Shown here piece after piece: positions 9,042 through 55,065 of a stretch of 64,000 nt of DNA. Numbering within the stretch: the stretch's first letter is position 1; each line of letters begins with the position of its first letter. A model generated the notes under the pieces. The model was given only the letters and a program-made list of their open reading frames with translations. It had not been told where the DNA came from and searched no databases. This DNA is from an uncultured Bacteroidota bacterium (GTDB taxonomy: Bacteria > Bacteroidota > Ignavibacteria > Kryptoniales > JAKASW01), in the NCBI GenBank assembly GCA_963768145.1, contig CAVYHK010000012.1:10193-74192 (forward strand), written 5' to 3'. The position numbers and the translations under genes were made by a program.

Positions 9042-10082
9042 CTACTCGCCCACTTCCACGACAATCTTCCCTGTTGTTCCACCCGATTGAAACACTCTTA
9101 TGGCATCTTTAAGTTTCTCGAATGAAAATACTTTTCCGACGTAAGGCTTATCAAGATGAAGGGATTGAATTTCGTCCAACATTTTCTTTAGCGCATCGAC
9201 TCGGTCGTAAAGCCAAATTAGGTTGAAACCCATGATGGACTTGTTTGATTCGATGAGAGTCAGGGTATGGTACCGCGGCATAGTGATGAATTTGAACGCG
9301 AGCTTGAGGTAGTTTGGCCTTGCTCCGGGCGACGCGAATTCCGAAAGTCCATAAGCCACCAACCTTCCGGTCGTGTTCAGAAAATCGAAGCTGTCTTTCT
9401 GGACTTTTCCTCCAATGGCATCAAGGACTAAATCGAGTTTTTTCCCGTCGAGATGTTTTTTTAATTCTGCTTTGAAATTGCGATTCCTGACTATGATGTC
9501 GTCGAATCCTTCAGACTCCAACCGGTTGATCTTAGACGGACTTCCGATTGTGCCGATGGTATATGCTAGAAATTTCTTTGCGATCCGGTTCGCGTAAGTT
9601 CCGACTCCACCTGCGGCACTGTGTATGAGCACGATCTGTTGAGACGCAAAATCTTGCGTCTTCGCTAAACCTCCAAGCCGGACGAGCGCGTAGTATGCCG
9701 TCAGCGCCTGCACTATGAACGACGCGCCATCTTCAAACGACCAGCCGTCAGGGACTTTCATGACGTACCTGTGGTCGATGTTCAGATGAGTAGTGTATGC
9801 CCCGAACCGCACAGTTCCCATTATCCTGTCGTTGACTTCTACATCGGAGACATTTGTCCCCTTATCCACCACAATTCCACTGAATTCAAGTCCGGGGATG
9901 AAATCTCTTTCCGGTGCAGCGCTGTACAATCCCAGAATCGTAAATACGTCGGCAAAATTGAGACCGATCGCTTTGACTTCGATGCAAACTTCATTTTCGG
10001 CAGGAGGGGGAAGCTCTTCCTCTACTAGCCTTAGATTATTAAGTGAACCAACCTTAGTGATCCTGTAGGACGCTCTCTTCAT
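9042..10082 (-). CDS. MDR-family (quinone oxidoreductase/VAT-1-like) dehydrogenase
   Basis: AIGLNFAD, PGLEFSG, VLIHSAAGGVG, C-terminal TTGKIVV. Confidence 0.88.
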   Translation of the reverse strand: MKRASYRITKVGSLNNLRLVEEELPPPAENEVCIEVKAIGLNFADVFTILGLYSAAPERDFIPGLEFSGIVVDKGTNVSDVEVNDRIMGTVRFGAYTTHLNIDHRYVMKVPDGWSFEDGASFIVQALTAYYALVRLGGLAKTQDFASQQIVLIHSAAGGVGTYANRIAKKFLAYTIGTIGSPSKINRLESEGFDDIIVRNRNFKAELKKHLDGKKLDLVLDAIGGKVQKDSFDFLNTTGRLVAYGLSEFASPGARPNYLKLAFKFITMPRYHTLTLIESNKSIMGFNLIWLYDRVDALKKMLDEIQSLHLDKPYVGKVFSFEKLKDAIRVFQSGGTTGKIVVEVGE

Positions 10083-10386
10083 AATACGCCACCGCAAATA
10101 GTGATTCGATTTGGTTACATTTCAAACTATGAACCACGCGTTTCAAAATCAATTTCTTCCATGGAAGTCTGAGCTTAGGCAGGAGGCGCTCCATCCTCCA
10201 AATAATATAGTCGTCACCCATTATGGTTTCGACAAGAATGTCATCGGGGGTTGCTTAACTTAGATCGTAAGATTTAACTTAGTCGGCAAATTGTGACTGC
10301 GTCTCGTCATGCGCTAAGGTCCAAAAGAATTATGTAGTGGCGAGTTACCAAGAATGATTTTTCTCACTATCCTACAAGGAAATGAA

Positions 10387-11409
10387 ATGGAGACAATTTT
10401 AATAACTGGCGCCAACGGCGAAATAGGACACGGGCTGATTTCATATTTTGCAGAGCGCGAGGACATAAGAGTGGTCGCGCTCGACCTGAATTCTCTTGAC
10501 GATTCCACACGCTCGAAATGTTACAAGACTTACACCGGCGATATTCTTGACGGGCGCTTCCTAGATTCCATGGCAACCGGCCACGACTTCGACACCATTT
10601 ATCATCTTGCCGCTCTCCTCTCCACACGCGCCGAGCGCCAGCCACCAATTGCACACAAAGTCAATGTTGACGGGACACTGAATCTTCTTGAGATGGCCGT
10701 GACACAATCGCGGCTCCAGGGAAAAGAAATAAAATTCGTTTATCCAAGCTCGATCGCGGTCTATGGCCTGCCTGATGTCGCGACGAAACATAAAGTGGGA
10801 AAAATCAAGGAGGACGAGTGGACCGAGCCAAGTACTATGTACGGAATAAATAAACTCTATTGCGAGAGGCTTGGGAGATATTATGCGAAGTTTTATCGCC
10901 AACTCGATGCGCAGCCGATGGGGGGCAAGGTCGATTTCAGATGCGTCAGATTTCCCGGATTGATCAGCGCTGTTACTCTTCCGACGGGTGGCACAAGTGA
11001 CTTCGCGCCGGAGATGCTCCACTATGCCGCCAAGGGCGAAGCATATTCATGCTTCGTTCGCGAAGACACGAGAATTCCATTCATGGCGATGCCGGACGCG
11101 GTGTCGGCGCTTCTCAAACTCGATGCGGCGCCGCACGAGAACCTTGGGCGTCAGGTCTATAATGTCAGCTCATTCTCACCCTCGGCACGCGAGCTGAGCC
11201 AAAGGGTGAAGAAAGCATTCCCATCAGCAGTCACCAACTTTAAACCCGACTTGAAACGGCAAGCTATCCTCGACACCTGGCCCGAAGACGCCGATGATTC
11301 GGAAGCAAGAAAAGACTGGGGGTGGGATCCGGTCTATGGATTCGAGAGAGCGTTCGAAGAGTACTTGGTCCCGGCAGTGTCAAAGTTTTATAAGTCGAGA
11401 CCGAAATAG
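10387..11409 (+). CDS. NAD-dependent epimerase/dehydratase (L-threonine dehydrogenase-like SDR)
   Basis: ITGANGEIG, YHLAALLS, PSSIAVYG, YGINK, RFPGLIS..PTGGTSD. Confidence 0.88.
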   Translation: METILITGANGEIGHGLISYFAEREDIRVVALDLNSLDDSTRSKCYKTYTGDILDGRFLDSMATGHDFDTIYHLAALLSTRAERQPPIAHKVNVDGTLNLLEMAVTQSRLQGKEIKFVYPSSIAVYGLPDVATKHKVGKIKEDEWTEPSTMYGINKLYCERLGRYYAKFYRQLDAQPMGGKVDFRCVRFPGLISAVTLPTGGTSDFAPEMLHYAAKGEAYSCFVREDTRIPFMAMPDAVSALLKLDAAPHENLGRQVYNVSSFSPSARELSQRVKKAFPSAVTNFKPDLKRQAILDTWPEDADDSEARKDWGWDPVYGFERAFEEYLVPAVSKFYKSRPK

Positions 11410-11456
11410 GTCTAAGAACTTCGATTTAGATTGTCAACCTGAGATTTCAGAGGCTC

Positions 11457-13640
11457 CTAGCTTGCCTTCAAGAACTCCAAACTCTCTTTGTAATTCTTCA
11501 AAAGAGTTTCCCGCAACTTTATATGCCCACTTTCTCGGAGGTGTGGATCCCGCTCGGCGATCTTGAACGCCGATCTTCTTGCCTGACTTATTATGTCTCG
11601 GTCTTTGATTAGATCTGCTAACCTCAACGGCGGGATTCCACTCTGTTTGGTTCCGAAAAATTCTCCCGGGCCACGAAGCATGAGATCGTATTCCGCGATT
11701 TTGAAGCCGTCCGATGTGGAGGAGAAAAGCTTGAGTCTCTGGTATGCGAGCGCGTCTTCTCTTGTTCGGATTTTCTTTTCATCCAGATACTGTTCATCCG
11801 TCATGAGAATGCAATAAGACTGATAAATACCGCGCCCTATTCTCCCGCGAAGCTGGTGAAGCTGACTCAGACCAAACCGCTCGGCGTGCTCCACTACCAT
11901 CAAAGTGGCATTTGGAACATCGATCCCGACCTCGATCACGGTCGTCGCAACTAATATGTTTATGGCGTTTTTTTTGAAGGCGAACATGATGTCGTTCTTC
12001 TCTGTCTCCGTCATTTGCCCGTGAACTAGACCGACTCTCAACCCGTGAAAGACCTCATCTCTCAACTGCACAAAGCTTTGCGTTGCAGCTTTCAGATCCG
12101 ACTTTCCTGCCCCTTTGGGGTCCGTTTCGTTAACCAACGGATATACAATAAAAGCCTGCCGCCCCGCCAGGACTTGTTCACGAATAAACTTGTAAATGTT
12201 ATTTCTCCGTGATTCGCCGCGCAACGCCGTCTTAATTTTTTTCCGTCCGCCCGGCATCTTATCAATGACTGAGATGTCAAGGTCGCCATAAATTGTAAGC
12301 GACAGCGTCCTCGGTATCGGAGTTGCCGTCATGACCAATAAATGGGGAGTTTCTCCTTTGGCCTGGAGTGTCATCCGCTGAACGACACCGAAGCGATGCT
12401 GCTCGTCAATCACTATAAGACCAAGCCTATTGAACTTTACTTTCTCCTGAATGAGCGCGTGTGTCCCAACCACAATAGACGCCTTGCCTTCTTCAATATC
12501 TGAATAGACTCGTGTTCTATCTCCCTTCTTTTGACCGCCAACGAGAATTGCAGATTCAATTCCAAGCAGATCGACATATTGTTTCACTGTCGCAAAATGT
12601 TGCGCCGCAAGAATTTCCGTCGGTGCCATGAAAGCTGTCTGGTAACCGTTTTCCACCGCGATGAGAATTGCGATGAGCGCGACAATGGTTTTTCCGCTGC
12701 CGACGTCGCCTTGGAGAAGCCTCTGCATCGGGTGACTCGACTTCATGTCGATGAAGATTTCCTGTAGAACTTTTTTCTGCGACTCAGTGAGTTTGAAGGG
12801 GAGAATCTCGTTTGTCAACTTTCTAACAAGCTGATCTTTTCCAGAGGACATCTGGATGCCAGGTGCAAGTTTCAGAAGATTCCGCCTGATGCCGAGAAGC
12901 AGCTGGAGGTAGAAAAGCTCTTCGAACTTAAACCTGCGCAGCGAATAGTTGAGGCGTTTTTCATCTTTAGGAAAATGAATCGAAACCAATGCCTCCTTAA
13001 AACTCATAAGAGAATTTGTAGACAGGACTTCAGCCGGTAGAACGTCGTCGGGGAATTCGAACTTCTCCTGTGATTCCAAAAGTTTCCAGATGATTCGTCG
13101 CAATCCTCGCGAATCAAGTCCGACCCTTCTCAGTCCTTCGATAGTCGGGTAGACAGGAATTATTCCACCGGTGTGCAAAAACTCCTCGTCCGATTCATCC
13201 TCCAGGTGATCATAATCCGGATGAATAAGACACGGCTCGTCCTGGTACGTTGTAACTTTTCCTGAAAAAGCAATCAGCTCGCCTTCTTTGAATGCATGAG
13301 AAAAGTATTGGACCCCATTAAACCAGACGCACCGCAGCGTCCCTGTTTCATCCGATAATCTCAGGAAAAGGAACTGCCGTCCCCCTCTTTTGACATACAG
13401 CGATTTTATTCTTCCGACAAATGTCACCTCATCCGGCGTTAGCAACGCCGACTGCGCGTCTTTTATCTTGATAATTCGGCTTCTGTCCAGATATTTTCGG
13501 GGAAAATAGTAAAGAAGGTCGAGCGGGGTATTGACGCCGACCGAGGCAAGTGCCTCGGCCCGCCTTGGACCGACTCCCTTTAGGAATTTTATTTCTGTTT
13601 CTGAGACTAAGCGCTTACCGCCGAATGTAGGTTGGGTCAT
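11457..13640 (-). CDS. recG: ATP-dependent DNA helicase RecG (start uncertain)
   Basis: RLLQGDVGSGKT, DEQHRFG, MTATPIPRT, QLHQLRGRIGRG, DLMLRGPGEFFGTKQSG. Confidence 0.97.
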   Translation of the reverse strand: MTQPTFGGKRLVSETEIKFLKGVGPRRAEALASVGVNTPLDLLYYFPRKYLDRSRIIKIKDAQSALLTPDEVTFVGRIKSLYVKRGGRQFLFLRLSDETGTLRCVWFNGVQYFSHAFKEGELIAFSGKVTTYQDEPCLIHPDYDHLEDESDEEFLHTGGIIPVYPTIEGLRRVGLDSRGLRRIIWKLLESQEKFEFPDDVLPAEVLSTNSLMSFKEALVSIHFPKDEKRLNYSLRRFKFEELFYLQLLLGIRRNLLKLAPGIQMSSGKDQLVRKLTNEILPFKLTESQKKVLQEIFIDMKSSHPMQRLLQGDVGSGKTIVALIAILIAVENGYQTAFMAPTEILAAQHFATVKQYVDLLGIESAILVGGQKKGDRTRVYSDIEEGKASIVVGTHALIQEKVKFNRLGLIVIDEQHRFGVVQRMTLQAKGETPHLLVMTATPIPRTLSLTIYGDLDISVIDKMPGGRKKIKTALRGESRRNNIYKFIREQVLAGRQAFIVYPLVNETDPKGAGKSDLKAATQSFVQLRDEVFHGLRVGLVHGQMTETEKNDIMFAFKKNAINILVATTVIEVGIDVPNATLMVVEHAERFGLSQLHQLRGRIGRGIYQSYCILMTDEQYLDEKKIRTREDALAYQRLKLFSSTSDGFKIAEYDLMLRGPGEFFGTKQSGIPPLRLADLIKDRDIISQARRSAFKIAERDPHLRESGHIKLRETLLKNYKESLEFLKAS

Positions 13641-13649
13641 GCGAAAAAC

Positions 13650-13740
13650 ATGGGACACAGACAACACGGAAGGCACAAATCCGTGCAGATAGGAAAATGC
13701 CGCAAACAGACAGATAGGTCATCCTTGGGAATTTGCATCA
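13650..13740. repeat. Degenerate ~9-nt-period repeat
   Basis: GACACAGAC AACACGGAA GGCACAAAT CCGTGCAGAT in the intergenic gap. Confidence 0.4.
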
Positions 13741-14397
13741 TCTAGTCAATCCGCGCTCAATCTTCGCGATAATGTCGTTCAGGTGTTTATGGTTATTGAC
13801 AAAATCTATCCCATCCGACTCGATAACGAGAAGATTGCCAATGCCTGCACCCGAATGCTTCAATCGGGTGTCATATCTCTTGATCCAGTCTTCGTAGCTG
13901 GCGTTCAACCGTTCAAGGTAATCTTTGCTTATGCTTTGCTCGTATTCACGCCCGCGGAGCTTTATTTGTTTCATCAGCGTGTCGATGTTCGCCCGGAGAT
14001 AGATGAGAAGGTCTGGCGGCTTCAAATAATCGACCATGATATTGAAAAGCTCACGGTAGTTCTCGTAGTCGCGTTTGTCCATACTGCCCATTTCATGAAG
14101 GTTGCGGGCGAAGATCTCGACGTCCTCATAAATCGATCTATCCTGTACGACCGATTCCGGCATCTCGATGATTTTCTTGTGGTTCTTGAAGCGATTCGAT
14201 AGGAAGTAAACCTGCAAATGAAATGACCAGCGCTTCATGTCGCCGTAGAAATCGCTAAGGTACGGATTATCATCAACCGATTCAAAGAAAGGTACCCAGC
14301 CGAAATGTTTGCTGAGTAGTTTGGTGAGGGACGATTTCCCGCTGCCGATATTTCCGGCAATGGAAATGAAAACCTTTTTGGGTGACTGGCTCGCCAT
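13738..14397 (-). CDS. Deoxynucleoside kinase
   Basis: IAGNIGSGKS P-loop, QDRSIYED, PPDLLIYL, RGREYE. Confidence 0.93.
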   Translation of the reverse strand: MASQSPKKVFISIAGNIGSGKSSLTKLLSKHFGWVPFFESVDDNPYLSDFYGDMKRWSFHLQVYFLSNRFKNHKKIIEMPESVVQDRSIYEDVEIFARNLHEMGSMDKRDYENYRELFNIMVDYLKPPDLLIYLRANIDTLMKQIKLRGREYEQSISKDYLERLNASYEDWIKRYDTRLKHSGAGIGNLLVIESDGIDFVNNHKHLNDIIAKIERGLTR

Positions 14398-14478
14398 GGA
14401 TGCCTCAGATTTCTATCAATTTAGTTTTGGACTGAAGAAATTGCAACGCAACGGGCGAAAATCGGCAGAAAACTGACA

Positions 14479-15114
14479 TTATTGAGTTCTTGCCAATTCA
14501 ATCAAAATCTTTTTCGCTTCTTCAAGTGCTCTTGCCCGGTGACTCAATTTGTTCTTGAGTTCTGAATCCATTTCCGCATAACTTGTTTCATACCCGTCCG
14601 GGTGGAACAGCGGATCATACCCGAAACCGTTTTTTCCTCTGGCTTCATTCAGGATTCGTCCGGATATTTCACCCGCAGCAATCTCATCTATTCCTTTTCC
14701 GATTATCGAAATCACGCAGCGAAACTTCGCGCCTCTCCTTTCAAGAGGAACGTCTTTCATTTCGAGAAGTAATTTCCTGTTGTTTTGCTCATAAGTTGAG
14801 TTCTCGCCCGAATATCTCGCGGAATAAACCCCCGGCCTTCCGCCGAGAGCATCTACCTCAAGCCCAGTATCGTCTGCAAGCGAAAGAAAATTTTGTCCCG
14901 GCTGGAATTCCGCAGTCGGGATTGAATTTCTAATTGAATCGAAAACAAATCTTGCTTTCTTCCTTGCATTATCTTCCAGTGTCTCTCCGTCTTCCATTAT
15001 CTCGCCAATCTCCGGATAATCATCCAAAGACAAAAGCTCAAATGGAAGATCGGATAGGATGCTTCTGATCTCTTCAACTTTGTGACGATTGTGAGTTGCA
15101 AGAACAATCTTCAT
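14479..15114 (-). CDS. rdgB: Non-canonical purine NTP pyrophosphatase RdgB/HAM1
   Basis: MKIVLATHNRHK, ADDTGLEVDALGGRPGVYSAR, GFGYDP, SHR. Confidence 0.95.
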   Translation of the reverse strand: MKIVLATHNRHKVEEIRSILSDLPFELLSLDDYPEIGEIMEDGETLEDNARKKARFVFDSIRNSIPTAEFQPGQNFLSLADDTGLEVDALGGRPGVYSARYSGENSTYEQNNRKLLLEMKDVPLERRGAKFRCVISIIGKGIDEIAAGEISGRILNEARGKNGFGYDPLFHPDGYETSYAEMDSELKNKLSHRARALEEAKKILIELARTQ

Positions 15115-15129
15115 GAAAGCTCCAAGTTC

Positions 15130-15152
15130 TCCGAATGGATCCCTTCGGGACA
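15130..15152. repeat. Short palindromic element, family A (intergenic copy)
   Basis: TCCGAATGGATCCCTTCGGGACA; 20/23 identical to the copies at 15672 and (reverse) 19822. Confidence 0.75.
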
Positions 15153-15270
15153 AATGCCAACCTCCAAACAAATTCCAATGAGGAAAAACAAAACGCCCAA
15201 ACTCGACTACCTCGTTTTTGCTGTTTTGAATTTTGTTTTTGCTTGGAACTTGGATTTGGGTGTTTGACAC
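15153..15270. repeat. Degenerate heptamer-like inverted repeat element
   Basis: Left arm rich in CCAA/CAAA units (AAATGCCAACCTCCAAACAAATTCCAA) and right arm rich in TTGG/TTTG units (TTGGAACTTGGATTTGGGTGTTTG). Confidence 0.5.
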
Positions 15271-15310
15271 TTATAACGGTCAGGCTGCGGTCGCTGCACA
15301 TTAGAGGTAC

Positions 15311-15593: not shown

Positions 15594-16964
15594 TCACACC
15601 AGCAGTTTCATTGCTTCTGAGATTTTCTGAACCTCGACGATTTCAATTTCTAATTTCGACTTTGCCCCCTTTCCAGATGGATCCCTTCGGGAAAAGTTTG
15701 CATGAGGCACGATTGCCCTCTTGAAACCCAGCTTTGCCGCTTCCTGGACCCGACGCTCGATCTGGCTGACGCTTCTCACCTCTCCGGCGAGTCCAACTTC
15801 CCCAATTACGATTGTGCTCGAGTCAACTGGAATATCTTTATAACTCGAAATGACAGAGACAGCCGCGGCAAGATCGATCGCAGGCTCATCGACCTTGACT
15901 CCACCTGCAACATTAAGAAAAACATCGAATCCGCCTAATTTCAGTCCAAGCCTTTTCTCCACAACTGCGAGGATTATGCTGAGGCGCCGATAATCAAAGC
16001 CGGTCGAGGTGCGTTGCGGTACCGAATAGCCTGTCGGCGCAACGAGCGCCTGGATCTCCAAAAGTATTGGTCTCGTTCCCTCAATAGCAGCGGTCACCGT
16101 CGAGCCGCTGGCGCCGTAGCTTCTTTCAGAGAGGAAAATCTCCGACGGGTTTTCGACTTCGACTAACCCAGATTCTCTCATCTCGAAGATTCCGATCTCA
16201 TTCGTCGATCCAAACCGATTCTTGTTTGCACGGAGAATTCTGAAGGCGTAATGCCGTTCGCCTTCAAGCTGCAATACCGCATCGACAATATGTTCTAGCA
16301 CTTTTGGTCCTGCGGCAATTCCATCTTTCGTTACGTGCCCGACGACAAAAACCGCGGTACCGGTAAGCTTCGCCAGCTGTGCAAGTCTTGCTGAGCATTC
16401 TCGCACCTGGCTGACACTTCCCGGTGCGGACACAACTTCGGGGTGATAGATCGTCTGTATGGAATCGACAATTAGAATCGGCGGATTAAATTCAGAAACG
16501 GCTTTCGTTACCAATTCGAGATCGGTCTCGGAGAGCACAAAAAGATTATTCAGGCTGGTTATCCCCAATCTTTCCGCACGTACTCTAACTTGTGCGCGTG
16601 ATTCTTCGCCGGTCACATAGAGTATCTTGCCTAATTTTGCGTTTCGAGCAAGCTGCATCATTAGAGTTGACTTGCCGACGCCAGGATCTCCAGCGATAAG
16701 GATGATTGACCCTGGTACAATCCCACCTCCAAGCACTCGATCAAATTCTTCAATTCCTGTGGAGAGACGGTTTCCCTCAGTCAAGTCGACTTCGCTCAGC
16801 GGGACAATATCTACTTTTCCCTTGGTCTCCTTGCTCCTGGGAGGCTCGCTGATCAGCTCCTCAACAAAACTGTTCCATTCTCCGCATTCCGGACATCGCC
16901 CGATCCAGCGCGGCGAGACGTACCCGCAGTTCTGACATGCGAACCTGATTGTTTGCTTGGACAT
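15594..16964 (-). CDS. radA: DNA repair protein RadA/Sms
   Basis: CxxC...CxxC zinc finger, GDPGVGKST, KNRFG motif, Lon-like C-terminus. Confidence 0.97.
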   Translation of the reverse strand: MSKQTIRFACQNCGYVSPRWIGRCPECGEWNSFVEELISEPPRSKETKGKVDIVPLSEVDLTEGNRLSTGIEEFDRVLGGGIVPGSIILIAGDPGVGKSTLMMQLARNAKLGKILYVTGEESRAQVRVRAERLGITSLNNLFVLSETDLELVTKAVSEFNPPILIVDSIQTIYHPEVVSAPGSVSQVRECSARLAQLAKLTGTAVFVVGHVTKDGIAAGPKVLEHIVDAVLQLEGERHYAFRILRANKNRFGSTNEIGIFEMRESGLVEVENPSEIFLSERSYGASGSTVTAAIEGTRPILLEIQALVAPTGYSVPQRTSTGFDYRRLSIILAVVEKRLGLKLGGFDVFLNVAGGVKVDEPAIDLAAAVSVISSYKDIPVDSSTIVIGEVGLAGEVRSVSQIERRVQEAAKLGFKRAIVPHANFSRRDPSGKGAKSKLEIEIVEVQKISEAMKLLV

Positions 16965-16968
16965 GACA

Positions 16969-16979
16969 ATTCAATTTAA
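16969..16979. repeat. 11-bp direct repeat ATTCAATTTAA (left flank of R-M module)
   Basis: Identical copy at 18846-18856. Confidence 0.6.
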
Positions 16980-17024
16980 TAAAGATGAGTGGGAAAGGAA
17001 AAACCAGGAATTAAAGATAAGACT

Positions 17025-17969
17025 TTAACCTTTATGTTTTCTACCTTGTCTTAACGTGTATTGGGTTGTCTTTTCGAGAAGCACTAATTGCTCGGCGCGC
17101 TTTCTAATGTCATGATTATGTTTCCTTATATCTGAAGGGAAGTTAAACACAAGAGCCTCAACGATCGCCTTCCTGTTTTCAATCTTTCCCCCAGAATGGT
17201 AAAAATGATCTCTGGTGACAATATTAAAATCAGCCCAGAATTTATCTATCATTACATTTTTTCTGAATTCGTTGTGATGCCATGTAGATAAAATGAATTT
17301 TGCTCTTGTTCTCTTCAACGCTTCGTATAATGTTCTTTCATCATCTTCGGTCCAGCCGTTATAGTAGTCAACATATCTTCCAATATATGGGGGATCACAG
17401 TAAATGATATCATCCTCGTTAGCCATTTCGATTATTTTTTCGAAGCTCCTTTTGTAAAAGAACCACTCAGGGGTAATTATTTGTGACACGTAGTCCACTT
17501 GATTCACAATCTTTGTTATATAGGCTTGTGAGAATCTATTGGGTTTCTTACAGAAGGGAATATTCCAACCACCACTTTTGTTAAATCTCATCATTCCATT
17601 GAACCCAGCCCTCGATAGGAATAAAAAATCTAAAGGATCGCGATTCGAGTTGAATCTGTCTCTTACGAACCGATAGTGTTCGTATCCTTGATCAGGCGCT
17701 TTTCTCAGTTTATCGCCTTCTTTGGTCAAGTATTCTCTCACTATCAGTGGAGTTATTTTTCGGTTTTGAACAGATCTGTAAAAATCTATGATGTAAGGGT
17801 TTGAATCGTTCAAGACGGCGTTGTAGTACCTAGAATTGAACGCCACAACACCCGTTCCCAAGAATGGCTCTACCCACCTTCCACTGACTTTTGGTGCCAA
17901 AGACAAAATCCAAGGAACGAGTTTGGTCTTAATTCCCTGGCTTTTTATGGGAGGTACTACAAGTTTCAT
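17025..17969 (-). CDS. Dam/M.EcoRV-family N6-adenine DNA methyltransferase
   Basis: VPPIKSQGIKTKL N-terminus as in M.EcoRV, EPFLGTG motif I, DPPY motif IV. Confidence 0.92.
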   Translation of the reverse strand: MKLVVPPIKSQGIKTKLVPWILSLAPKVSGRWVEPFLGTGVVAFNSRYYNAVLNDSNPYIIDFYRSVQNRKITPLIVREYLTKEGDKLRKAPDQGYEHYRFVRDRFNSNRDPLDFLFLSRAGFNGMMRFNKSGGWNIPFCKKPNRFSQAYITKIVNQVDYVSQIITPEWFFYKRSFEKIIEMANEDDIIYCDPPYIGRYVDYYNGWTEDDERTLYEALKRTRAKFILSTWHHNEFRKNVMIDKFWADFNIVTRDHFYHSGGKIENRKAIVEALVFNFPSDIRKHNHDIRKRAEQLVLLEKTTQYTLRQGRKHKG

Positions 17970-18841: not shown

Positions 18842-18845
18842 GATG

Positions 18846-18856
18846 ATTCAATTTAA
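18846..18856. repeat. 11-bp direct repeat ATTCAATTTAA (right flank of R-M module)
   Basis: Identical copy at 16969-16979. Confidence 0.6.
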
Positions 18857-18922: not shown

Positions 18923-20122
18923 TTAACGAATCAGCACCAGCTCGTCTTGCTCTCTTCCGGTGATCATCACCTTATTTGAACCCTCTATGAAAGCATTCAG
19001 CTCCGACCGAACTCCCATTTTGCCTTCTAAGTAGATTCCAGGTTCAAGCGAGAATAGGCATCCCGGCACAAGGAGCCGTGTGTCCTGGGTTTCAAAGTTG
19101 TCTATATTCGCGCCGTTACCGTGGACTTCTTCGCCAATCGAATGCCCGGTACGATGCGTGAAATATTCACCGTAGCCGGCTTCCTTGACCACACTTCTAC
19201 ATACATCGTCAACCTCCCAACCAGCAACTTGTCTGCCTGCGTTCAACCTCTCACTCAGAAACTTGAATCCTGCCCGCCTTGCATCACGGACAACATGGAA
19301 TGCTCTCACATATTCTTCCGGAGGATCATCGCCGACAAATGCACACCATGTTATGTCGTAATAAATAGACCCCGGTTTGTCGAACTTTGCCCAGAGGTCA
19401 ATAAGCAATTTGTCACCCGGTTTTATCCTCCGCGAGTTCTTCGGAGTCGGAGCAAAATGCGGATTCGCAGGATGATCATTTATGCCGACAATCAGCGGAT
19501 CGTCTGTCACAAGACCATTTGCTTTGAAACGTTTCTCAATGAATTGCTCAATTTCATACTCCGTTTTGTAGTTCTTGCTCCGCAGCGATTTTCGCACTTC
19601 GTCAAAAGCCTCATCTAAAATCTTGTCGATCAGTTTGCCAGCCTTGAAATGGGACTTGATCGCCTTCTCGTCCAGGAGAGCCTCAAATTGTTGGACTAAA
19701 TCCGCCGACGAAACGATTTCGTGGCCAAAGCTTTTCACAAGCTCAACTGTACCACCATCTACGATTGAGACATATGGAATTGCATTCATCTGTGAATACT
19801 GCATTGCAATCTTCGACGGCCTGTCCCGAAGTGATCCACTCGCACCGAGAATCTCCTTGAGATTCTCGTGAAGTTCCCGCCAACTTGAATACATCAGTTT
19901 TTTTCCGGGGAGATGATCTAATTTGGTCGGCTCGACGCGGTGGGCAAGTTTGACAGGATCGCCAACCGCGGGAACAAAATAGTACCACCGGCGTGTTGAC
20001 ATAGCATGAGGATCGATTCGGAGAATTTTCAAGCCGAGGTGATCACGGTTGTGAAAATCAAAAAAGAGCCAGCCGTCGATCCCGAGCGACTTTATTGCAG
20101 TTTGGATTTTGTTCAGGTCCAT
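18923..20122 (-). CDS. M24 family Xaa-Pro aminopeptidase
   Basis: LIDLWAK, YYDIT, HRTGHSIG..VHG, SLEPGIY, GVRSE metal ligands. Confidence 0.9.
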   Translation of the reverse strand: MDLNKIQTAIKSLGIDGWLFFDFHNRDHLGLKILRIDPHAMSTRRWYYFVPAVGDPVKLAHRVEPTKLDHLPGKKLMYSSWRELHENLKEILGASGSLRDRPSKIAMQYSQMNAIPYVSIVDGGTVELVKSFGHEIVSSADLVQQFEALLDEKAIKSHFKAGKLIDKILDEAFDEVRKSLRSKNYKTEYEIEQFIEKRFKANGLVTDDPLIVGINDHPANPHFAPTPKNSRRIKPGDKLLIDLWAKFDKPGSIYYDITWCAFVGDDPPEEYVRAFHVVRDARRAGFKFLSERLNAGRQVAGWEVDDVCRSVVKEAGYGEYFTHRTGHSIGEEVHGNGANIDNFETQDTRLLVPGCLFSLEPGIYLEGKMGVRSELNAFIEGSNKVMITGREQDELVLIR

Positions 20123-21674: not shown

Positions 21675-22940
21675 ATGATAATCCGTCAAGCTTCAGGCAA
21701 TGACACCGACTCCTTAGCTTCACTTCTTTCAAAATCCTTTTTGGAAGAAACCTCCGTCATTCGCGTCAGCCTTGAAAATAATCCGCGTTATTCCCTATCC
21801 AACATGTACGTTGCTGAAGACAAGACAATCAATGCTGGCATTGTGGGTTGTCTTCGAATAACTCCATTTGAAGTCTACTCTCGCGGGACAAAAATGCCGA
21901 TGGCAGGTATCGCTGCAGTTGCGGTTCAACCGGAAGCGAGAAGACGTGGAATCGCAGAAGCCCTCATGGAAGATGCGTTGAGGAAAATGTATGAAATGGA
22001 TTACCCGATCTCGATGTTGTTCCCATTCAAACACCATTTCTACAAGAAGTTCGGTTACGGCTATGTTGGAAACATAATGTTTTACGAAATTACGCCGAGT
22101 AATATTTCCCAATTCCCTTCCGAATCCCGTTCATTATCGGGAGAAGAGCGATCACATGTCCGCGCTTTTAACAAAGCAGACAAGAACAAGCTGAAGAGAG
22201 TTTTGCAGCAGGAAATGCAAACAAATGGCAGGCTCACCCTCTTGAGGAACGATAACTTCTGGGATCTGGTTGTGTTTCCAAAGTTCAAGGACGCTTATGT
22301 TTACGATGACGGCGAAGTAAAGGGTTACATAGTCCTTGAAGTTTACAAAGAGCATGATCGCTCCGATGGACTTGTCGGCAAGACAGTCTTGAACATTAAA
22401 GAACTCGTCGGACTCGATGCGGCAGTCCACCGCGGATTGTGGGGATTTGTGGGCGCACTGGGCGAACAGGTAAGCCGCATTAAGTTTCTGGCTCCAGCCG
22501 ATTACCCCCTTCACCTTTTCCTGAAGGAACCAAGCGAAGCTGAATACCGAAGATTGTTTTTTGAATATAAATCTTTTTCCACAGTTGCGGCGGGTTTCAT
22601 GCTGAGAGTGATAAATGTTTTTGATGCGCTCAGCAGATTACATCATAATTTCGATTCACCGGCGGACTTCGTTATTAGAGTCAACGATGGAAGCCTCATG
22701 CAGAATTCCCGGAATTTCAACCTGCATGTTCACAATGGGGAAACTGTAGTCGATGAGACAAAACAAAATGTTCAGTTTGAATCGGACATTGAAATATTTT
22801 CGCAGATCTATTCCGGTTTCCTGAAACCCAGCGATGCTCTGAGATTTAGTCTTGCTCAGGGTGAAAAGCCGGTTGCAGCAAGACTTGATGAACTTTTTAA
22901 GGCACCTGCACCGTTCATATATCACTACGATATTTTCTAA
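21675..22940 (+). CDS. Eis-like GNAT acetyltransferase with C-terminal SCP2-like domain
   Basis: GIAAVAVQPEARRRGIA, LFPF..HFYKKFGY, FMLRVIN. Confidence 0.88.
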   Translation: MIIRQASGNDTDSLASLLSKSFLEETSVIRVSLENNPRYSLSNMYVAEDKTINAGIVGCLRITPFEVYSRGTKMPMAGIAAVAVQPEARRRGIAEALMEDALRKMYEMDYPISMLFPFKHHFYKKFGYGYVGNIMFYEITPSNISQFPSESRSLSGEERSHVRAFNKADKNKLKRVLQQEMQTNGRLTLLRNDNFWDLVVFPKFKDAYVYDDGEVKGYIVLEVYKEHDRSDGLVGKTVLNIKELVGLDAAVHRGLWGFVGALGEQVSRIKFLAPADYPLHLFLKEPSEAEYRRLFFEYKSFSTVAAGFMLRVINVFDALSRLHHNFDSPADFVIRVNDGSLMQNSRNFNLHVHNGETVVDETKQNVQFESDIEIFSQIYSGFLKPSDALRFSLAQGEKPVAARLDELFKAPAPFIYHYDIF

Positions 22941-22954
22941 CTCAAGGAGAGAAA

Positions 22955-23515
22955 ATGAACTCGATCCTGGTGATGTGGTTAGGTTTTCTGTTCGTCACGG
23001 GCACAGGTTCCGTTCCCGGACTGTCTCAGAGGAATCCCAATTCGGAACAACCTGTAAGTGCAATTACGAGCAGCGGCAGCGGCGGCGACCTCAATTGGAC
23101 AAATTATACCGATGGTATCAGGCAAGCGTCGGCGGCAAGAAAGAAGATACTCATTGATGTCTATACTGACTGGTGCGGTTGGTGCAAGAAGATGGAGAAA
23201 GATACCTACAGCGATGAAGACATCAAGGGTTACCTGACATCGAACTATATTCTTGTAAGATTAAATGCCGAGAGCGATAAGAAGGAAACGGTAGGGAATG
23301 AGGAAATGACGCAGGCCGATATCGCCAGGGCTTATAAGGTGAATGGTTACCCTACAACGGTCTTCCTAAATTCGGATGGCCTGCCGATTACCTATGTCAG
23401 CGGTTACATGAAGCCCGCGGAGTTCAAGCCGGTGCTGAAATACATCGCAGAGGATTACTACAAGAAAATGGGCTATCAGGAGTATCTGAGGTCACCGGGG
23501 GCGCCTTCAAATTAG
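22955..23515 (+). CDS. Exported thioredoxin-fold protein (SoxW-like)
   Basis: Signal peptide; DVYTDWCGWCKKM; GYPTTVF. Confidence 0.85.
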   Translation: MNSILVMWLGFLFVTGTGSVPGLSQRNPNSEQPVSAITSSGSGGDLNWTNYTDGIRQASAARKKILIDVYTDWCGWCKKMEKDTYSDEDIKGYLTSNYILVRLNAESDKKETVGNEEMTQADIARAYKVNGYPTTVFLNSDGLPITYVSGYMKPAEFKPVLKYIAEDYYKKMGYQEYLRSPGAPSN

Positions 23516-46922: not shown

Positions 46923-46960
46923 GCCGGCACCCTGAATCAGACTCGCTTCAGCATGCAGGC
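46923..46960. repeat. Intergenic imperfect palindrome
   Basis: GCCGGCACCCTGAA...TTCAGCATGCAGGC, 11/14 complementary. Confidence 0.5.
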
Positions 46961-47100
46961 ACGGGAAATTTATTGATGCAATCGAAAAAAAACAAGGAGC
47001 ATCTGCTTTAGAATACACGGGCGTGGCATAATAAGCCCAGATATTCACGGTCAGCGACAACGAATCCGCGAGAATCTACTGAGTTGTCATTTTCAGCCTG

Positions 47101-49116: not shown

Positions 49117-49296
49117 ATCAATCTGAAAGTCTATGATGTTTTGGGAAGAGAAGTTGCGACATTAGTGGATGAGGACCAGATCGCGGGGTTGCATTCCGCG
49201 AATTTCAACGCGGTCAACATCCCGCGCGGCGTGTATTTATACCGTCTGGTGTCAGGAGATATTACAGCAACAAAGAAAATGGTACTTATCAAGTAA
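49117..49296 (+). pseudogene. Orphan T9SS C-terminal sorting-domain fragment
   Basis: INLKVYDVLGREVATLVDEDQIAGLHSANFNAVNIPRGVYLYRLVSGDITATKKMVLIK*; in-frame stops at 49039-49044 and no ATG ahead of the domain. Confidence 0.75.
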
Positions 49297-49376
49297 ATTT
49301 TCGTGTTCTTCGCTCGGCAACGTGACCGTCAATTTTTGATCCTATGTAATTTCTCTCCGGTCTGTTATTTTTCTGG

Positions 49377-50240: not shown

Positions 50241-53200
50241 TTCCTTACTCGAGAATCTCTCCCCGCTTAGAGCTATCCTGCAAGTTTCGGAGTAGGGACA
50301 AAAAGTGCAGACTCTCTCAAAAGAAAACTCTGTGAGATTGAACCGACCTGTCGTTGCTTCGGACACTTTCTCGTTGAAAATTGATTCGGTCTCAGCAAGG
50401 AGTTCTTCCATCGATTTCGGATATTCCTCAGTGGAGCTCAATTTGCGTCCGCTACCGAATGTCGGATTGTACCTCAATTCAGAGCCATCCGTTTGAACGA
50501 TAAAATTGACTAAATCTTTTCCGTCCTCCGCGCTCATCAGCCTGTCACGGTTTATCGAGATGAACGCAGCTCCTTTGACTTTCCCTTCGATTTTGTTCTC
50601 GCCGATTAGCTGATGTAAGGCGTTCAAATACAAAACTAACTGCGGCGAGATTTTGTCGCCGATGACATCCTTGCTCGTTGGAATGGTTGAAGAAGTCTTG
50701 TAATCAAAAATTGTCAGCCCATTTGAGTCAGCATCAATTCTGTCGATCTTTCCGCGCAGGAATATGTTGCCAACTCTCACCGGAGGAATCTCTTCTTTGG
50801 CTTCCTTTTCCGAATGAGCAGGATTTCGCTTCGCAAGCGGCATCCCGAAGCCCAATTCAAATTCTTTCGGCTGGAAACCATATTCCGAAAGTTTCGATTG
50901 AACTTTCTCTAAGAAGAGTTCCAGCGTTCCCTTTACGCCGGAAGCACCGAGAATTGTTTCCCGCTCAACTTCGAACAAATCATGTGTGATTCCAAGCTCA
51001 TCGAGGGTTTGTTTCCCGATTTCAAGCAGAAGTTCGAGCTCATCTTTCACAATATTGAGTTTGTTCGTTTTTGACAACTCAGTGTAAAATCGAAACAGAA
51101 TTCTATGGAGAACTGCACCTCTTTCAATCGCGCTTAAGGATGTCTCAATGTCTGGGACTTCAGCGATATGCAAGACCCTGCGCACGAAATATTGGAAGCC
51201 GCATCTGGCTAAAGATTCCAATTGAGCAGCAGAGAAGATTCTTTCCGCGAACAGACCTGACAAACGTCTGATTGAATCAGTCTCTCCAATCTTCCCGTGG
51301 AATTCGCTTTCCATATTATTCTGGTACCTTGAGAGTTCAGCTCTTTTGCATCGCTCTAAATTCGAAGGGATGAGACGAGCGTTTTCCAGTCCGATGTGCT
51401 CCAAGATTTCTGGTGAAGCTTCTATCGCTTGCTGAATATTGTAAATACTCCTTGAGCGCGCTTCATTCTTCGAGTCATCACTGCTTGTAAAATCAGAGAC
51501 ATCCTGCACAGCATCGATAAACGACGATCTAGTATGTCGCACTTCATCTGTCCTGAGAGGATGGACCAAATACAATCCCCTTTTGAATGAGTTGACTGCC
51601 TGATAGAAGAGATACCTTTGAAGATATGGCTGCATCTCCCGATTTTCTTTCTGTGAAACGAGTGGCAGAAAAATCTCGGGAGTATACCTAGTCGGAAGCT
51701 CACCTTCGTTCAGTCCGACGATAAACAGGTAATCAAATTCAAGCCCGCGAATTTCCTCAAGTGAAGTCACATACACGCCATAACCGTATTTCTGACGAAC
51801 GTTATACCGAGTCAACGAGAGCGCCGAGCGAAGTTTCTCCATCCAGATATCCAGCTCAATCTTTGTATTTCCCTTCTGCGTCTCGACATCGACGATTTCA
51901 TCAATGACATCGAGGAAGGCAGAGAGTGCCCTTGCATCGCGCTCCACTATTTCTGCCGGAACATCTCGCGCAACAATCTTCGCAATACTTTCGTGAACTC
52001 TGAGGCTGTTCAAAAGAGATATCATCGCGCCGTGAAACTCGAATGGCGTCATTTCCCTGTTTAGCGGAGCCAACTTATTTTCAACGGATTCTAAGATAGC
52101 CTGAGCTTGTCTAAGTGTTTCAGCGTTCCTACGGGTTTGGATCTCATCCTCGTCAAGTTCTTCCGAACTGAGTTTGCCGAGCAACTCGAGGCGGGATGCT
52201 ATCGCTTCTTTGAAACTCTTTAAACCCCTCTCAAACTTGCAAAGAAACGCCGCGTTATAAATGATGCTGCCTGCTGCACTTGGCGTCAGAGTGTCACTGA
52301 TAACGATGAACCTGTTTGTTATGGCACGAAGCAACGCACTTCGCTCGTAATCTGCTAATCTGATATCGATGAACGACAAGAGGGCATTTATGACGCTATT
52401 GCTTTCGAGGGTAAAACGGTCCGTGACATTTGCCGGGATCCGGTACTTAGCAAAGACCTCTCTTACAATCCGAGAATAGTTTTGTGGAAGGTATGAAGCA
52501 ACGCAAATACTGTCCAATTTCTGGCCGGGATTGCTCTTGATTATCTCTTTGATTTCTTCCGCAACAAATTCTATTTCACGCAGCTTATCGCGCACTGCTA
52601 CGACGGAGACCTTTTCTCTGAGGTTGCGTCTTACAGCCGGTGGTTCTTCCGCAAACAAATTTAAAGCAAAATATTCACGAAGATCTTGAACGTCTTCTGA
52701 TTTCCGGCTTCTAGCCCCGTCAGAATCATTTATGCTTCGTGGTCCAGTTGGCGGGACTTCCATCCTTTTGAATCCTCTTGCCGTCAGCTCCGAGGCCGTC
52801 CGGAGCATTGTTTTAAAGAGGTTTTCGTTGGCTTCAACGCAATCGAGTTTGATGAGAAACGAGAGGCCCTTTTGAGACGAAAGGATTCTCAGGAACTCAA
52901 GCTCAGGTTTCTTAAAGTCATAAAAACCTTCGACAAAGAAAGTCGCAGATCCGGCATCCTCTATCGAGCTCTGCGGGATAAGATTACCCGGGAAACTCTT
53001 GCCGATTAATTCCGGCGTCGCCGCAATTTCACGGTTCAGAAGCGAGAGGAGTCCTGCGCTGTCTATCAGTTTCGCGCCGAGACTCTTTTCGTATTCCTCA
53101 TAGATCCGAAGGAATTCTTCCAGTTTATGCCGCTCAGATTTTTCCGCTGCGACGAGCAAATTTTCATAATCTTCGGGCAGGATTCCATTTTCTCTGAGAT

Positions 53201-53600: not shown

Positions 53601-53601
53601 T

Positions 53602-54801
53602 TTATTCTATTTTTTTTGCATCATCGTCTATTTTCGCAACTCCTTGCAGGCGCTCTCTGAATCTACCCAACGCTTCGTGAGAATCATCGTACTTGTTCGC
53701 AGCATTCTTCAAGTGCGTGCCGAGCGTTTCGAAATGATCATCGAACTTCAGCAGAGAATTCTCAAGCTGGGCAAGCTGGTCGCGGATCAGTTGGGCATTC
53801 CTCTCGATTTGCATTCCTTTTAGCCCTATGGCGATCGCCTGAATATACGCATAGAAACTATTCGGCGAGGCGGGAATGACGTGCTTCTTCATTGCATAAC
53901 GATATGCGCCGTTCTCATCGCCTTCTTGCATCAGTAACTCGTAATACATGCTCTCCGAAGGTATGAACATTATCGCGAAATCGAAGGTGTTCTCGGTCGG
54001 CTTGATATATTTCCCAGCAATGTCGTCAATCTGATCTTTTAGCGCCTTCGAGAACTTTGTCATGGCGTTGCTTTTTTCGGAGTCGCTCTCGGCATTAACG
54101 TAACGCTCAAATTCATCTTTCGGAAATTTCGAATCGATCGGGATTAGCCTTTCGGAAGTCTTTATGATTGCGTCGACTTTTGATCCATCACGAAAGGTGT
54201 ATTGAAATTCATAGAAGCCCTGCGGTATGACTTGTTTGATTAAATCCTCAAGGAGTGTCTCGCCCAGGTTTCCACGAAGTTTCGGCGAGCTTAAAATATT
54301 CTGCAGCTGGTTTATCTGTTTTCCGATCTCGACCATATTATTGCTGGACTCCTTCAACTGACCGAAGTCCTGCTTAAGAGACGAAAATAGATTATTGGCT
54401 TCGGAGAGCTGCCCCCCGACCTGAGAACCGATGCTGGTGAGACGCTCTTCAACCGACCCGCGAAGGCTTTCAACTTGTTTGCCGACGATGTTTGCTAATT
54501 GGGAAACTTGGCTCGCAAGCTGCTCGACCTGCGAGTTTGTTCCTGCCCGGTTCTCCTCCATTCCTTTAGACAGGGTATTCGCCACCAGCTGAAGTGTGCC
54601 TGCCATGGTTTCATTGTTGGTACGTGTCGTCTCAGACGCAGATTTAATTGCGGATTCGACATCCGCTTTAAACACGGTAAACAATTGCATTACTTGTTCT
54701 GATGATGAGTGCTGCTTGGTTGATAGATTCCTGAATTGGAGGAAAATCAAAATCATTCCGACGAACAATAATGCGATGATAGACAAGATTATTGGTTCCA
54801 C
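53602..54801 (-). CDS. rmuC: DNA recombination protein RmuC
   Basis: N-terminal TM, coiled coil, PKLRGNLGE, IPIDSKFP, TFDFAIMFIPSE, ASPN. Confidence 0.92.
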   Translation of the reverse strand: MEPIILSIIALLFVGMILIFLQFRNLSTKQHSSSEQVMQLFTVFKADVESAIKSASETTRTNNETMAGTLQLVANTLSKGMEENRAGTNSQVEQLASQVSQLANIVGKQVESLRGSVEERLTSIGSQVGGQLSEANNLFSSLKQDFGQLKESSNNMVEIGKQINQLQNILSSPKLRGNLGETLLEDLIKQVIPQGFYEFQYTFRDGSKVDAIIKTSERLIPIDSKFPKDEFERYVNAESDSEKSNAMTKFSKALKDQIDDIAGKYIKPTENTFDFAIMFIPSESMYYELLMQEGDENGAYRYAMKKHVIPASPNSFYAYIQAIAIGLKGMQIERNAQLIRDQLAQLENSLLKFDDHFETLGTHLKNAANKYDDSHEALGRFRERLQGVAKIDDDAKKIE

Positions 54802-54932
54802 ATTTTCTCCTTATCGAATCTCAAATTCGAAGTGCCACGCCACAATTGTTACTCGTGGAATGCCTCCAGAAACTTGTACGGTTTTTAAAACAGCATCTGC
54901 GAAAACCTTCAAGGGTAATGAACTTCCGCATG

Positions 54933-55065
54933 CCCACCCCATCCCCGCATAAGAACATTGCGGGACAGGCCTGACCTTCCCCCACAAGGGAAAGGAATTG
55001 GCATCCCCTCTCCTCGTAGAAGAGGGTCAGAGCTTGCCCCGAACATGATTCGGGGGTCAGGTGAG
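54933..55065. repeat. Composite (nested) palindromic repeat element
   Basis: Two inverted CCTTCCC..GGGAAAGG / CCCCTCTCC..AGAGGG units, each interrupted by a smaller palindrome. Confidence 0.7.

Follow-up and report, generated by a model that had tools for sequence, protein, structure and literature searches.

By what route proteins gain loops is an open question, as is the means by which gene-less repeats of about 20 bases move; the two meet in the DNA analyzed here, a stretch of 64,000 nt (the window) from the genome of an uncultured Bacteroidota bacterium of the Ignavibacteria (source genome, G000). An earlier note, made from the letters alone, had described palindromes within eight genes and between others, and the hairpins that it reported are indeed present at the positions it gave. 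Palindromes lying in frame in proteins are familiar from other bacteria, ever since the description of Rickettsia palindromic elements (RPE), which limits how surprising the general idea is. The account that we favor for the inserts, and which as a whole has about an even chance of being correct, is that they are tiny, gene-less mobile DNA, moved as folded single strands by GIY-YIG nucleases and filtered for reading frame and for loops.

Inserts within and between genes

Gene inserts were located by codon alignments with syntenic orthologues, and several families occur among them: a double mini-hairpin family (hereafter family A), GAGACG..CGTCTC hairpins, CCTG-tailed hairpins, and heptamer runs. 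Family A is represented by a 21-nt insert in radA (15672..15692, reverse strand; peptide SRRDPSG), for which 15 of 24 same-genus rows and 5 of 5 sister-family rows show an empty site, by 21 nt (7 aa) added to the M24 peptidase gene (19824..19844, reverse strand), found in G000 only among 30 rows, and by a 21-nt double mini-hairpin that lies amid heptamer-like repeats, upstream of where rdgB likely starts (15130..15150). Two further 21-nt inserts on the reverse strand likely belong to this family: a decayed double hairpin, assigned by eye, that lies in frame near the start of miaB (7645..7665; absent in G006 and G010), and a decayed, family-A-like insert (7 aa) in a DUF58 gene (55694..55714; absent in G006, the only row resolved at the site). 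The MDR gene carries the second family (9640..9661, reverse strand), a GAGACG..CGTCTC hairpin with nine genome copies, whose insert, at about 9641-9658, adds a net 18 nt (6 aa) and is empty in 4 of 7 rows.

The inserts in recG (12106..12120, reverse strand; 15 nt, 5 aa) and in the deoxynucleoside kinase gene dNK (13844..13870, reverse strand; 27 nt, 9 aa) are hairpins with a CCTG tail that resemble two intergenic ones, at 54941..54968 (13 genome copies, this one nested within a longer repeat) and at 55031..55055 (4 genome copies). The small recG hairpin gives a length seen in G000 only of 29 rows and corresponds to a gap in T. maritima RecG (1gm5), while the dNK insert is old, being decayed in six relatives and empty in one of eight rows (G011). 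In rdgB, a 26-nt hairpin lies inside a heptamer run (14896..14921, reverse strand), with a net gain of 15 nt against G010 and G017 and of 39 nt against G006 (three rows). On the forward strand, an Eis-like acetyltransferase gene holds an older 27-nt insert (22117..22143; 9 aa), decayed in four relatives and empty in three of eight rows (G001, G011, G024), and a thioredoxin-like gene holds one of about 51 nt (17 aa), assigned to no family, near its start (23009..23059, bounds approximate), absent in five of six rows. On the reverse strand, lptD has a decayed, double-hairpin-like insert of 27 nt (9 aa) near the gene start (34457..34483; absent in G006 and G014), and addB has a double-hairpin-like insert of 33 nt (50808..50840; 11 aa; absent in G006) and a hairpin insert of 36 nt (52945..52980; 12 aa; absent in G006, the one full orthologue compared). 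At 20% mismatch, the genome contains no close second copy of the dNK, rdgB, Eis, addB or LptD inserts, whose family was judged by eye. Between genes, a nested hairpin with a double-hairpin-like core amid a GCGG..CCGC palindrome (8045..8080; fold -12.9 kcal) is also present in a close relative, with no empty site seen, and a decayed hairpin at 46923..46962 has no close second copy in the genome.

The claim of in-frame inserts in eight named genes thus stands for MDR, recG, dNK, rdgB, radA, M24 and Eis, with 5-12 added codons and empty orthologues, and fails for the ArgA-like site (31725), which folds weakly and is equal in length to its counterparts in G006 and G014; the insert that had been thought possible in addB is the 36-nt one. 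Inserts beyond that list were found in miaB, LptD, DUF58 and thioredoxin genes, with two more in addB. The added residues are likely tolerated loops. As to the surface loops that had been expected, support from structure is thin: the M24 insert is a coil flanked by helix 88-98 and strand 111-114 in a predicted model of fair quality (pLDDT 77), and the RadA insert is a coil in a poor one (pLDDT 52).

Indel lengths and chance controls

Comparison with one relative, G006, sampled over 860 kb of its ~4.1 Mb with the window's own region included, gave 676 orthologue pairs, of which 461 were kept after removal of overlapping frames. Among 67 clean internal indels of 3-40 aa (required to have, on each side, 12 gap-free residues at 50% identity), 23 measured exactly 7 aa, the next class numbering 10; window genes supply 4 of the 19 G000-side 7-aa indels. 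Intergenic family templates matched 11 of these 23, ranked below 0.05 against windows of their own genes, versus 4 of 28 other indels of at least 5 aa.

Perfect hairpins in the coding DNA of the window are not clearly above synonymous shuffles (131 vs 117-146 for arms of at least 6, 41 vs 23-40 for at least 7, and 10 vs 5-12 for at least 8), and folding energy gave a weak signal, 5 of 49 G000-longer indels beating own-gene controls at a rank below 0.05. The inserts at 15130, in radA and in M24 have 81, 42 and 17 close genome copies at up to 4 mismatches, against 0-2 in shuffles. Because bulk genic hairpin counts do not exceed shuffles, the proof of inserts lies in indels and family membership, and the signal is carried by indel length, family membership and exact filled/empty pairs; these bear out the proposal that several tiny palindrome families add peptide loops. 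A direct-repeat finder run on the window returned chance families only, and Rfam gave no match within it at gathering score.

Anatomy of the family A element

Family A is a double mini-hairpin of 21-22 nt, with 86 copies genome-wide in G000 under a strict pattern, each of 19-27 nt and with two mini-hairpins. On our own gene calls (3,267 genes), 25 of the 86 lie in predicted genes and 61 are intergenic. A length of 21 nt is found in 20 of the 25 genic and 13 of the 61 intergenic copies (Fisher p 8.6e-7), and 22 nt in 33 of the latter. Genic copies are nearly always 21 bases long and add seven amino acids, an excess behind which selection very probably acts as a reading-frame filter; a single discrete element of 21 nt, and not the 16-55-nt spread of sizes first described, is the most frequent insert in genes. 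Genic copies occur in both orientations (14 vs 6 of 20), and genic inserts use both strands and several frames, yielding unrelated peptides; older copies have decayed in sequence and kept their length.

As a non-circular check of this anatomy, partner hairpins were sought around the commonest half: a perfect hairpin abuts it upstream in 37 of 64 distinct contexts, with 26 different partners, and downstream in 9 of 63, the random expectation being 8.6%. The halves are interchangeable and covary, with compensatory changes in the stems. A hairpin with a G-N-A loop opens the 5' end of the element on both strands; DNA hairpin loops of the G-N-A type are very stable. Among asymmetric copies, 22 of 31 show the short-hairpin-first orientation on the G-rich strand, a post hoc count confounded with gene strand. 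A generic double-hairpin scan without anchor stayed near its control (23,835 vs ~20,978), and an anchored scan gave 79 genic matches versus 40-46 in shuffles.

Insertion sites and targets

A close relative (~88-90% identical; contigs from a single study) retains the MDR, dNK, rdgB, M24 and Eis inserts. It is shorter by exactly 21 nt at 15130, and by a net 21 nt and 15 nt in radA and recG, respectively. An empty counterpart was found for 9 of the 86 family A copies; in all nine, zero bases are gained or lost beyond the element, and target duplication is absent from every filled/empty pair. Hairpin loops are hit repeatedly: the T-loops of tRNA-Val, tRNA-Leu and tRNA-Met copies, a REP loop, a CRISPR repeat (one repeat at six array loci of G027, the neighboring repeats listed being empty), and the element itself, nested as 21-in-21 and 22-in-22 inserts. 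A loose flank bias, TT-N|N-A(A/G), surrounds family A sites and is not fitted by the CRISPR-repeat target. Empty coding targets and controls are about equally loop-like (0.56 vs 0.55). Lineages in which the radA site is filled are interleaved with others in which it is empty, and some inserts in radA (one of 18 nt), dNK and Eis persist across several species. Insert sequences do not copy their own flanks.

Distribution across genomes

The exact 21-mer was found at 45 loci in several phyla, between unrelated flanks with the same flank bias; family A thus extends beyond the source lineage. ARAGORN detected no tRNA within 300 nt of these loci, and no cyanobacterium is named among their record titles. 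A phylum-wide 12-mer search gave matches in 89 of 251 genomes, counts being used only where they reached at least 4 per genome; genomes with 1-2 matches were rejected as evidence, with 0.3-0.5 expected by chance and a backward control that contains the rare word CTAG. In agreement with the earlier note, no description of family A or of such inserts in this lineage was found in the literature covered, which took in few subscription papers.

Candidate movers and rival explanations

No RAYT/TnpA mobiliser had been noted in the window, and possible movers lie elsewhere in G000, with 13 GIY-YIG and 11 Y1 matches (Y1 proteins at C41:23401 and C25:162481 among them). Eight of 11 small GIY-YIG matches are within 700 nt of a tRNA gene, the tRNA-linked ones including those at C1:19663, C36:11364 and C10:58782, and duplicated tRNA ends by such genes carry family inserts or swapped arms; 11 family A copies, from 5 loci, are near tRNAs. 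A small GIY-YIG gene is present within 400 nt of three of the 61 intergenic copies (0.5 expected); for Y1, DUF559, four-helix-bundle or GxxExxY genes, the number is zero. G031 and G034 have small GIY-YIG genes and no core match. Correlation with copy number among 68 related genomes, whose kin are not independent, does not discriminate (rho 0.31 for GIY-YIG, 0.28 for Y1). The proximity to GIY-YIG genes may come only from spare tRNA copies, in which an insert in a favored loop is tolerated. Related GIY-YIG enzymes with a single domain cleave ssDNA at hairpin repeats, and the main text on the Ssn enzymes, which does not mention tRNA, demonstrates cutting and not joining or insertion (PMC11893778). 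A small tRNA-linked GIY-YIG nuclease is our tentative candidate for the mover, with somewhat less than an even chance.

That family A is a real mobile element is almost certain. The opposing reading, local origin by replication slippage or template switching, could appeal to the many older inserts without a close second copy and to bulk hairpin counts equal to shuffles, but it must face the same 21-mer between unrelated flanks at dozens of loci in several phyla, inserts that do not copy those flanks, and the fixed 7-aa spike; very improbable overall and largely refuted for family A, it would stand for singletons only. The chance that the added loops or mRNA hairpins were selected for function (regulation, stability) appears just as slight, since the persistence of some inserts, those in dNK and Eis and the 18-nt one in radA, across species is countered by sequences that drift freely and lose pairing, by the unrelated peptides that result from both strands and several frames, and by close relatives that manage without inserts. 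The loops are probably near-neutral.

As for the agent of movement, an untagged, REPIN-like doublet could be moved in trans by a Y1 transposase of the genome (RAYT or IS200-type) via a single-stranded circle. HUH enzymes, as described in PMC6006769 and PMC8266576, are established to cut and join ssDNA at hairpins; the 11 Y1 matches, the inverted doublet layout, the absent target duplication and the confounded G-rich-strand orientation would fit, and precise excision would explain the interleaving at radA. However, a GTAG or CGTC tag is found at one end in only 6 of 86 copies (6% at random), none of the 61 intergenic copies has a Y1 gene within 400 nt, these genes are flanked by different hairpins of their own, and four genomes with the core (G003, G009, G013, G027) have no Y1 match, with low counts and G013 alone being single-contig. 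We regard this route as rather unlikely, and another mover or host repair as unlikely. Spread by way of a small RNA, with a reverse transcriptase or a template jump, as reportedly proposed for Nostoc SDRs, is improbable: compensatory stem changes and insertion into loops of two transcribed targets, tRNA copies and a CRISPR repeat, would suit it, but the 5' G-N-A loop on both strands and the two genic orientations fit DNA better, and loops of spare tRNA copies are ssDNA hairpins as well.

According to the GIY-YIG account, the main unit would be a 21-22-base element of two abutting hairpins, with no genes of its own, that lands at a nick as a folded single strand without duplicating its target; a single-stranded intermediate is suggested by the G-N-A loop hairpin with which either strand begins. 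Small GIY-YIG nucleases that cut hairpins, like those encoded beside the genome's tRNA genes, may make the nicks, with sealing by host ligase or repair, and copies inside genes would survive only if the frame is kept and, likely, a tolerant loop is hit. A bolder version, possible yet doubtful, is that two turns of DNA make up a complete mobile unit, a nicked dumbbell of interchangeable hairpins, cut and pasted or swapped into hairpin loops by a tiny tRNA-linked GIY-YIG enzyme with neither transposase nor reverse transcriptase, crossing phyla and serving as the main source of new loops in the proteome.

Implications

One element class explains a measurable 7-aa spike in indel lengths across a proteome; were the bolder version true, it would supply about a third of clean indels and, by extrapolation, roughly 100-140 loops of seven residues in the genome. 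The exact donor and target sequences and candidate enzymes of fewer than 100 residues can be assayed with oligonucleotides, and a GIY-YIG nuclease that inserts or swaps hairpins would represent a new mobility chemistry and possibly a tool for scarless short insertions. For annotation, 7-residue "signature indels" recur independently at the radA site in these lineages and are poor phylogenetic markers.

Relation to known elements

The small dispersed repeats (SDRs) of Nostoc (Elhai et al. 2008, Genome Res 18:1484) appear to be the closest kind to family A, a comparison resting mostly on reported features. SDRs reportedly nest, land in heptamer repeats and show compensatory changes, the mover being unknown. 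SDRs are mobile and ~20-27 nt long, and SDR5 is described as inserted precisely into HIP1 (PMC4390886; SDRs are also mentioned in PMC2884548 and PMC3116915). Family A would share their approximate size, precise insertion, nesting and compensatory stems; unlike them, it occurs in other phyla and without an HIP1 target, as compared by description and not by sequence. For family A, moreover, both a 7-aa signature across the proteome and a link to tRNA and GIY-YIG genes were quantified here.

Like RPE, family A inserts in frame in conserved proteins. RPE and intragenic REPs are described as palindromic repeats in frame in conserved proteins, including those of DNA repair genes, and in RNA genes, with a near-neutral effect shown for one RPE-bearing enzyme; RPE-1 measures 105-146 nt with one long stem, and tagged REPs, which carry a terminal GTAG or CGTC, lie mostly outside genes (PMC2229807, PMC3733652, PMC3184786). 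Membership of RPE was rejected on length and on the two mini-hairpins, that of tagged REPs on the tag frequency, that of REP/REPIN with RAYT on the lack of Y1 flanking, and that of MITEs on the absence of target-site duplication. As in the REPIN of PMC3116915, family A is a non-autonomous inverted doublet of short hairpins, but it is several-fold smaller and has no spacer, tag or flanking Y1.

In the Ssn system with NTS/SRM (Chenal et al. 2025, PMC11893778), single-domain GIY-YIG genes also lie beside short hairpin repeats, and NTS are given as rarely genic (2%), in contrast to family A. Ssn/SRM membership was rejected, none of 16 matches to the published degenerate SRM motif in G000 overlapping the 86 copies; one single-domain GIY-YIG gene of this genome has SRM matches (C35:112242-112806). 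The double-hairpin elements (DHE) of fungal mitochondria, for which Paquin et al. 2000 is the cited source, are likewise GC-rich pairs of adjacent stem-loops, thought mobile and with mover unknown (PMC4618339); as organelle elements, they are like family A in shape only.

In-frame inserts in housekeeping genes

The source genome (G000; 3.87 Mb in 53 contigs, numbered C; the window is C12:10193-74192) carries short palindromic inserts in several housekeeping genes, the main insert family being a 21-22-nt double mini-hairpin, here called family A. The earlier note had proposed that such palindromes add peptide loops to the proteins; the hairpins do lie where it placed them and Pfam supports its gene labels, and orthologue alignment reveals extra residues at the palindromes of MDR, recG, dNK, rdgB, radA, M24, Eis and addB, but not of the ArgA-like gene, which was rejected as an insert site, being equal in length in the syntenic relatives G006 and G014. 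Codon alignments with the syntenic regions of seven same-genus genomes place in-frame inserts of six residues in MDR, nine each in dNK and Eis, a net five in rdgB, five in recG (28 orthologues), and seven each in radA and M24 (29 orthologues apiece), and addB holds three, of 12, 14 and 11 residues, relative to one orthologue. Further in-frame inserts occur in miaB, lptD, DUF58 and a thioredoxin-like gene.

The inserts are of unequal age: those of M24 and recG are private to G000 among the compared genomes, and those of dNK and Eis are shared and decayed. A close relative, represented by contigs approximately 88-90% identical from three runs of one study (X2, X3 and X5), is without exactly 21 nt at window position 15130, has radA and recG shorter by a net 21 and 15 nt, respectively, and retains the remaining compared inserts. 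Family A is real and ongoing on a short evolutionary scale.

Relatives also carry hairpin inserts of their own at other sites, in recG of G010 (L035) and of G024 (L047), elsewhere in G024 (L046-L048; YggS, HGSNAT-like) and in GT9, recG and Eis of G001 (L044-L045). The RecG insert of G010, whose source is a repeat like those flanking DUF559 genes, is the longest of these, at up to 26 residues. Heptamer-type repeats, resembling those that flank four-helix-bundle genes, lie upstream of rdgB (window 15150-15290), and are found in frame in the rdgB and radA linkers of relatives (radA orthologues L012, L016 and L020).

Comparison with chance

Synonymous shuffles of the window genes contain perfect hairpins about as often as the genes themselves, and folding energy singles out only 5 of 49 indels at which G000 is longer; the tiny size of the elements, and the decay of many, explain why these tests give no clear signal. 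By indel length, template match and family copy number, the in-frame inserts exceed chance. G000 was compared with an 860-kb sample of G006 over 461 orthologue pairs (161,818 aligned residues); of the 67 clean indels, 23 measure exactly seven residues, and the next length class numbers 10. Eleven of these 23 outperform windows of their own gene (rank <0.05) in matching intergenic-only templates, and most of the others display, as judged by eye, a layout of T-C..G-A followed by T-C..G-A. At up to four mismatches, the inserts at 15130, in radA and in M24 have 81, 42 and 17 genome copies, shuffles having 0-2. The 461 sampled genes, the window being part of the sample, have 19 seven-residue indels on the G000 side; extrapolation to all 3,267 predicted genes would give approximately 100-140 such inserts in G000.

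Regarding effects on the proteins, a model of mean pLDDT 77 shows the M24 insert as coil linking a helix to a strand, that of RadA falls in low-confidence coil of a poor model, and that of RecG corresponds to a gap relative to the solved T. maritima protein; old inserts have kept their length and lost sequence and pairing. The inserts probably form near-neutral surface loops.

Anatomy and frame filter of family A

Each copy consists of two abutting perfect mini-hairpins, usually with stems of 3-6 bp and loops of 2-5 bases; a G-N-A loop marks the first on one strand and often the second on the opposite strand. One half can stand in for another: a hairpin, of 26 different kinds in all, abuts the commonest half on its upstream side in 37 of 64 distinct contexts, and one abuts it on its downstream side in 9 of 63, the random rate being 8.6%. 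Splits of 7+14, 10+11 and 11+11 are found.

A strict pattern retrieves 86 copies in G000, 25 in predicted genes and 61 outside. Most genic copies are 21 nt long (20/25) or multiples of three (22/25), and intergenic ones measure 22 nt in 33 cases and 21 nt in 13 (Fisher p 8.6e-7 for 21 nt and 7.9e-8 for multiples of three, genic versus intergenic). Genes make up 84% of G000 yet contain 29% of the copies; this deficit and the length split indicate that the element inserts blindly and that copies which shift the frame or do harm are then lost. Genic copies employ both strands and several frames, and encode unrelated peptides. Three copies of 20 or 22 nt inside predicted genes (C26:43544, C44:43146 and C7:73643) may point to genes with a frameshift, to errors in gene calling or to misplaced bounds.

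Landing sites

An empty counterpart was found for 9 of the 86 copies, and also for tRNA copies, and reveals exact addition, with nothing duplicated or lost. The flanks are biased, with T-T-N before and N-A-A/G after, both in G000 and at 45 loci of other genomes, which are titled Kryptoniota, Ignavibacteria, Chitinophagales, Calditrichia, Elusimicrobiota, Desantisbacteria and others. Non-coding copies often sit in hairpin loops. Among these are the T-loops of tRNA-Val, -Leu and -Met ends that have been duplicated, three loops (T, anticodon and D) of a single tRNA-Ser copy, as judged by eye, and the loops of a REP-like hairpin and of another family-A copy. In G027, from the sister family, an exact 22-nt double-hairpin insert occupies the loop of a single CRISPR repeat at each of six array loci (L196-L201), the other repeats examined, neighbours of the filled one, being empty; among 12 sister-family genomes, only G027 contains the 12-mer core, a sequence word of family A. 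In coding DNA, empty targets resemble loops no more than controls do, so genic copies give no sign of loop targeting.

In spare tRNA-Val, -Gln and -Pro copies the whole anticodon arm is replaced by a single related hairpin, suggesting a modular exchange of hairpins. At one radA site, inserts of seven, eight and six residues are scattered over the gene tree among empty alleles, and may reflect repeated hits, precise losses or recombination. Tandem partial tRNA-Val and tRNA-Met copies at C33:150045-150600 and C41:36198-37000 each carry a T-loop insert, some of which hold a second, nested insert.

Candidate movers

G000 contains 11 Y1, 13 GIY-YIG, 7 DUF559, 12 four-helix-bundle and 7 GxxExxY matches and, since each set is flanked by repeats of its own, these repeats probably account for the other insert families. 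Locally, family A is linked only to small GIY-YIG genes that neighbour tRNA genes: 3 of the 61 intergenic copies adjoin such genes, versus 0.5 expected, and none of the 61 adjoins a Y1, DUF559, four-helix-bundle or GxxExxY gene. Of the 11 small GIY-YIG matches, eight have a tRNA gene within 700 nt. At six loci (C1:19246-19990, C10:58782-59211, C21:32081-32746, C25:99150-99700, C36:11278-11680 and C46:11250-11950) the gene stands directly behind a tRNA gene with duplicated tRNA ends, which display a T-loop insert or a hairpin in place of the anticodon arm; some of these units form tandem repeats. Relatives show the layout too, at loci selected for it and thus not a fair sample.

A small tRNA-linked GIY-YIG nuclease is our tentative candidate for the putative mover, at somewhat below even chances. 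Related single-domain GIY-YIG enzymes cut single-stranded DNA at hairpin repeats, according to PMC11893778; however, cutting differs from inserting, spare tRNA copies may be just safe targets, family-A copy number tracks GIY-YIG and Y1 equally weakly, and two sister-family genomes have a small GIY-YIG gene and lack the 12-mer core. Mobilization by Y1 appears unlikely; an RNA route would be more doubtful still. Two further GIY-YIG arrangements were observed: an Ssn-like small gene adjoining two matches to the published SRM motif (C35:112242-112806), and, in G110, at least 14 small units arranged in tandem at a spacing of about 300 nt.

Relation to known elements

Family A presumably most resembles the very small SDRs of Nostoc. 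Membership tests place it outside tagged REPs, RAYT-flanking REPINs, SRM repeats, RPEs and MITEs. In mode of working it is like RPEs and intragenic REPs (PMC2229807, PMC3733652). No description of it was found in the largely open-access literature searched; it is apparently undescribed as a family, within the known kind of very small mobile palindromes. The locus adds a proteome-level count, a frame filter and exact donor/target pairs.

Other observations

An EcoRV-like endonuclease and D12 adenine methylase pair (window 16968-18846) is a restriction-modification cassette, recently gained or lost: it is missing from the close relative, whose sequence lacks 1,877 bases at this place, 11 bases fitting either side, and the pair has no orthologue in the syntenic regions compared. 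The 12-mer core has 84 matches in G098 and 34 in G018. A 25-nt double palindrome has many copies elsewhere in G000, and dense runs of CCCCTCTC..GAGAGGGG repeats, many holding a nested tailed hairpin, occupy C33 (~554000-570000) and C48 (~3000-27000).
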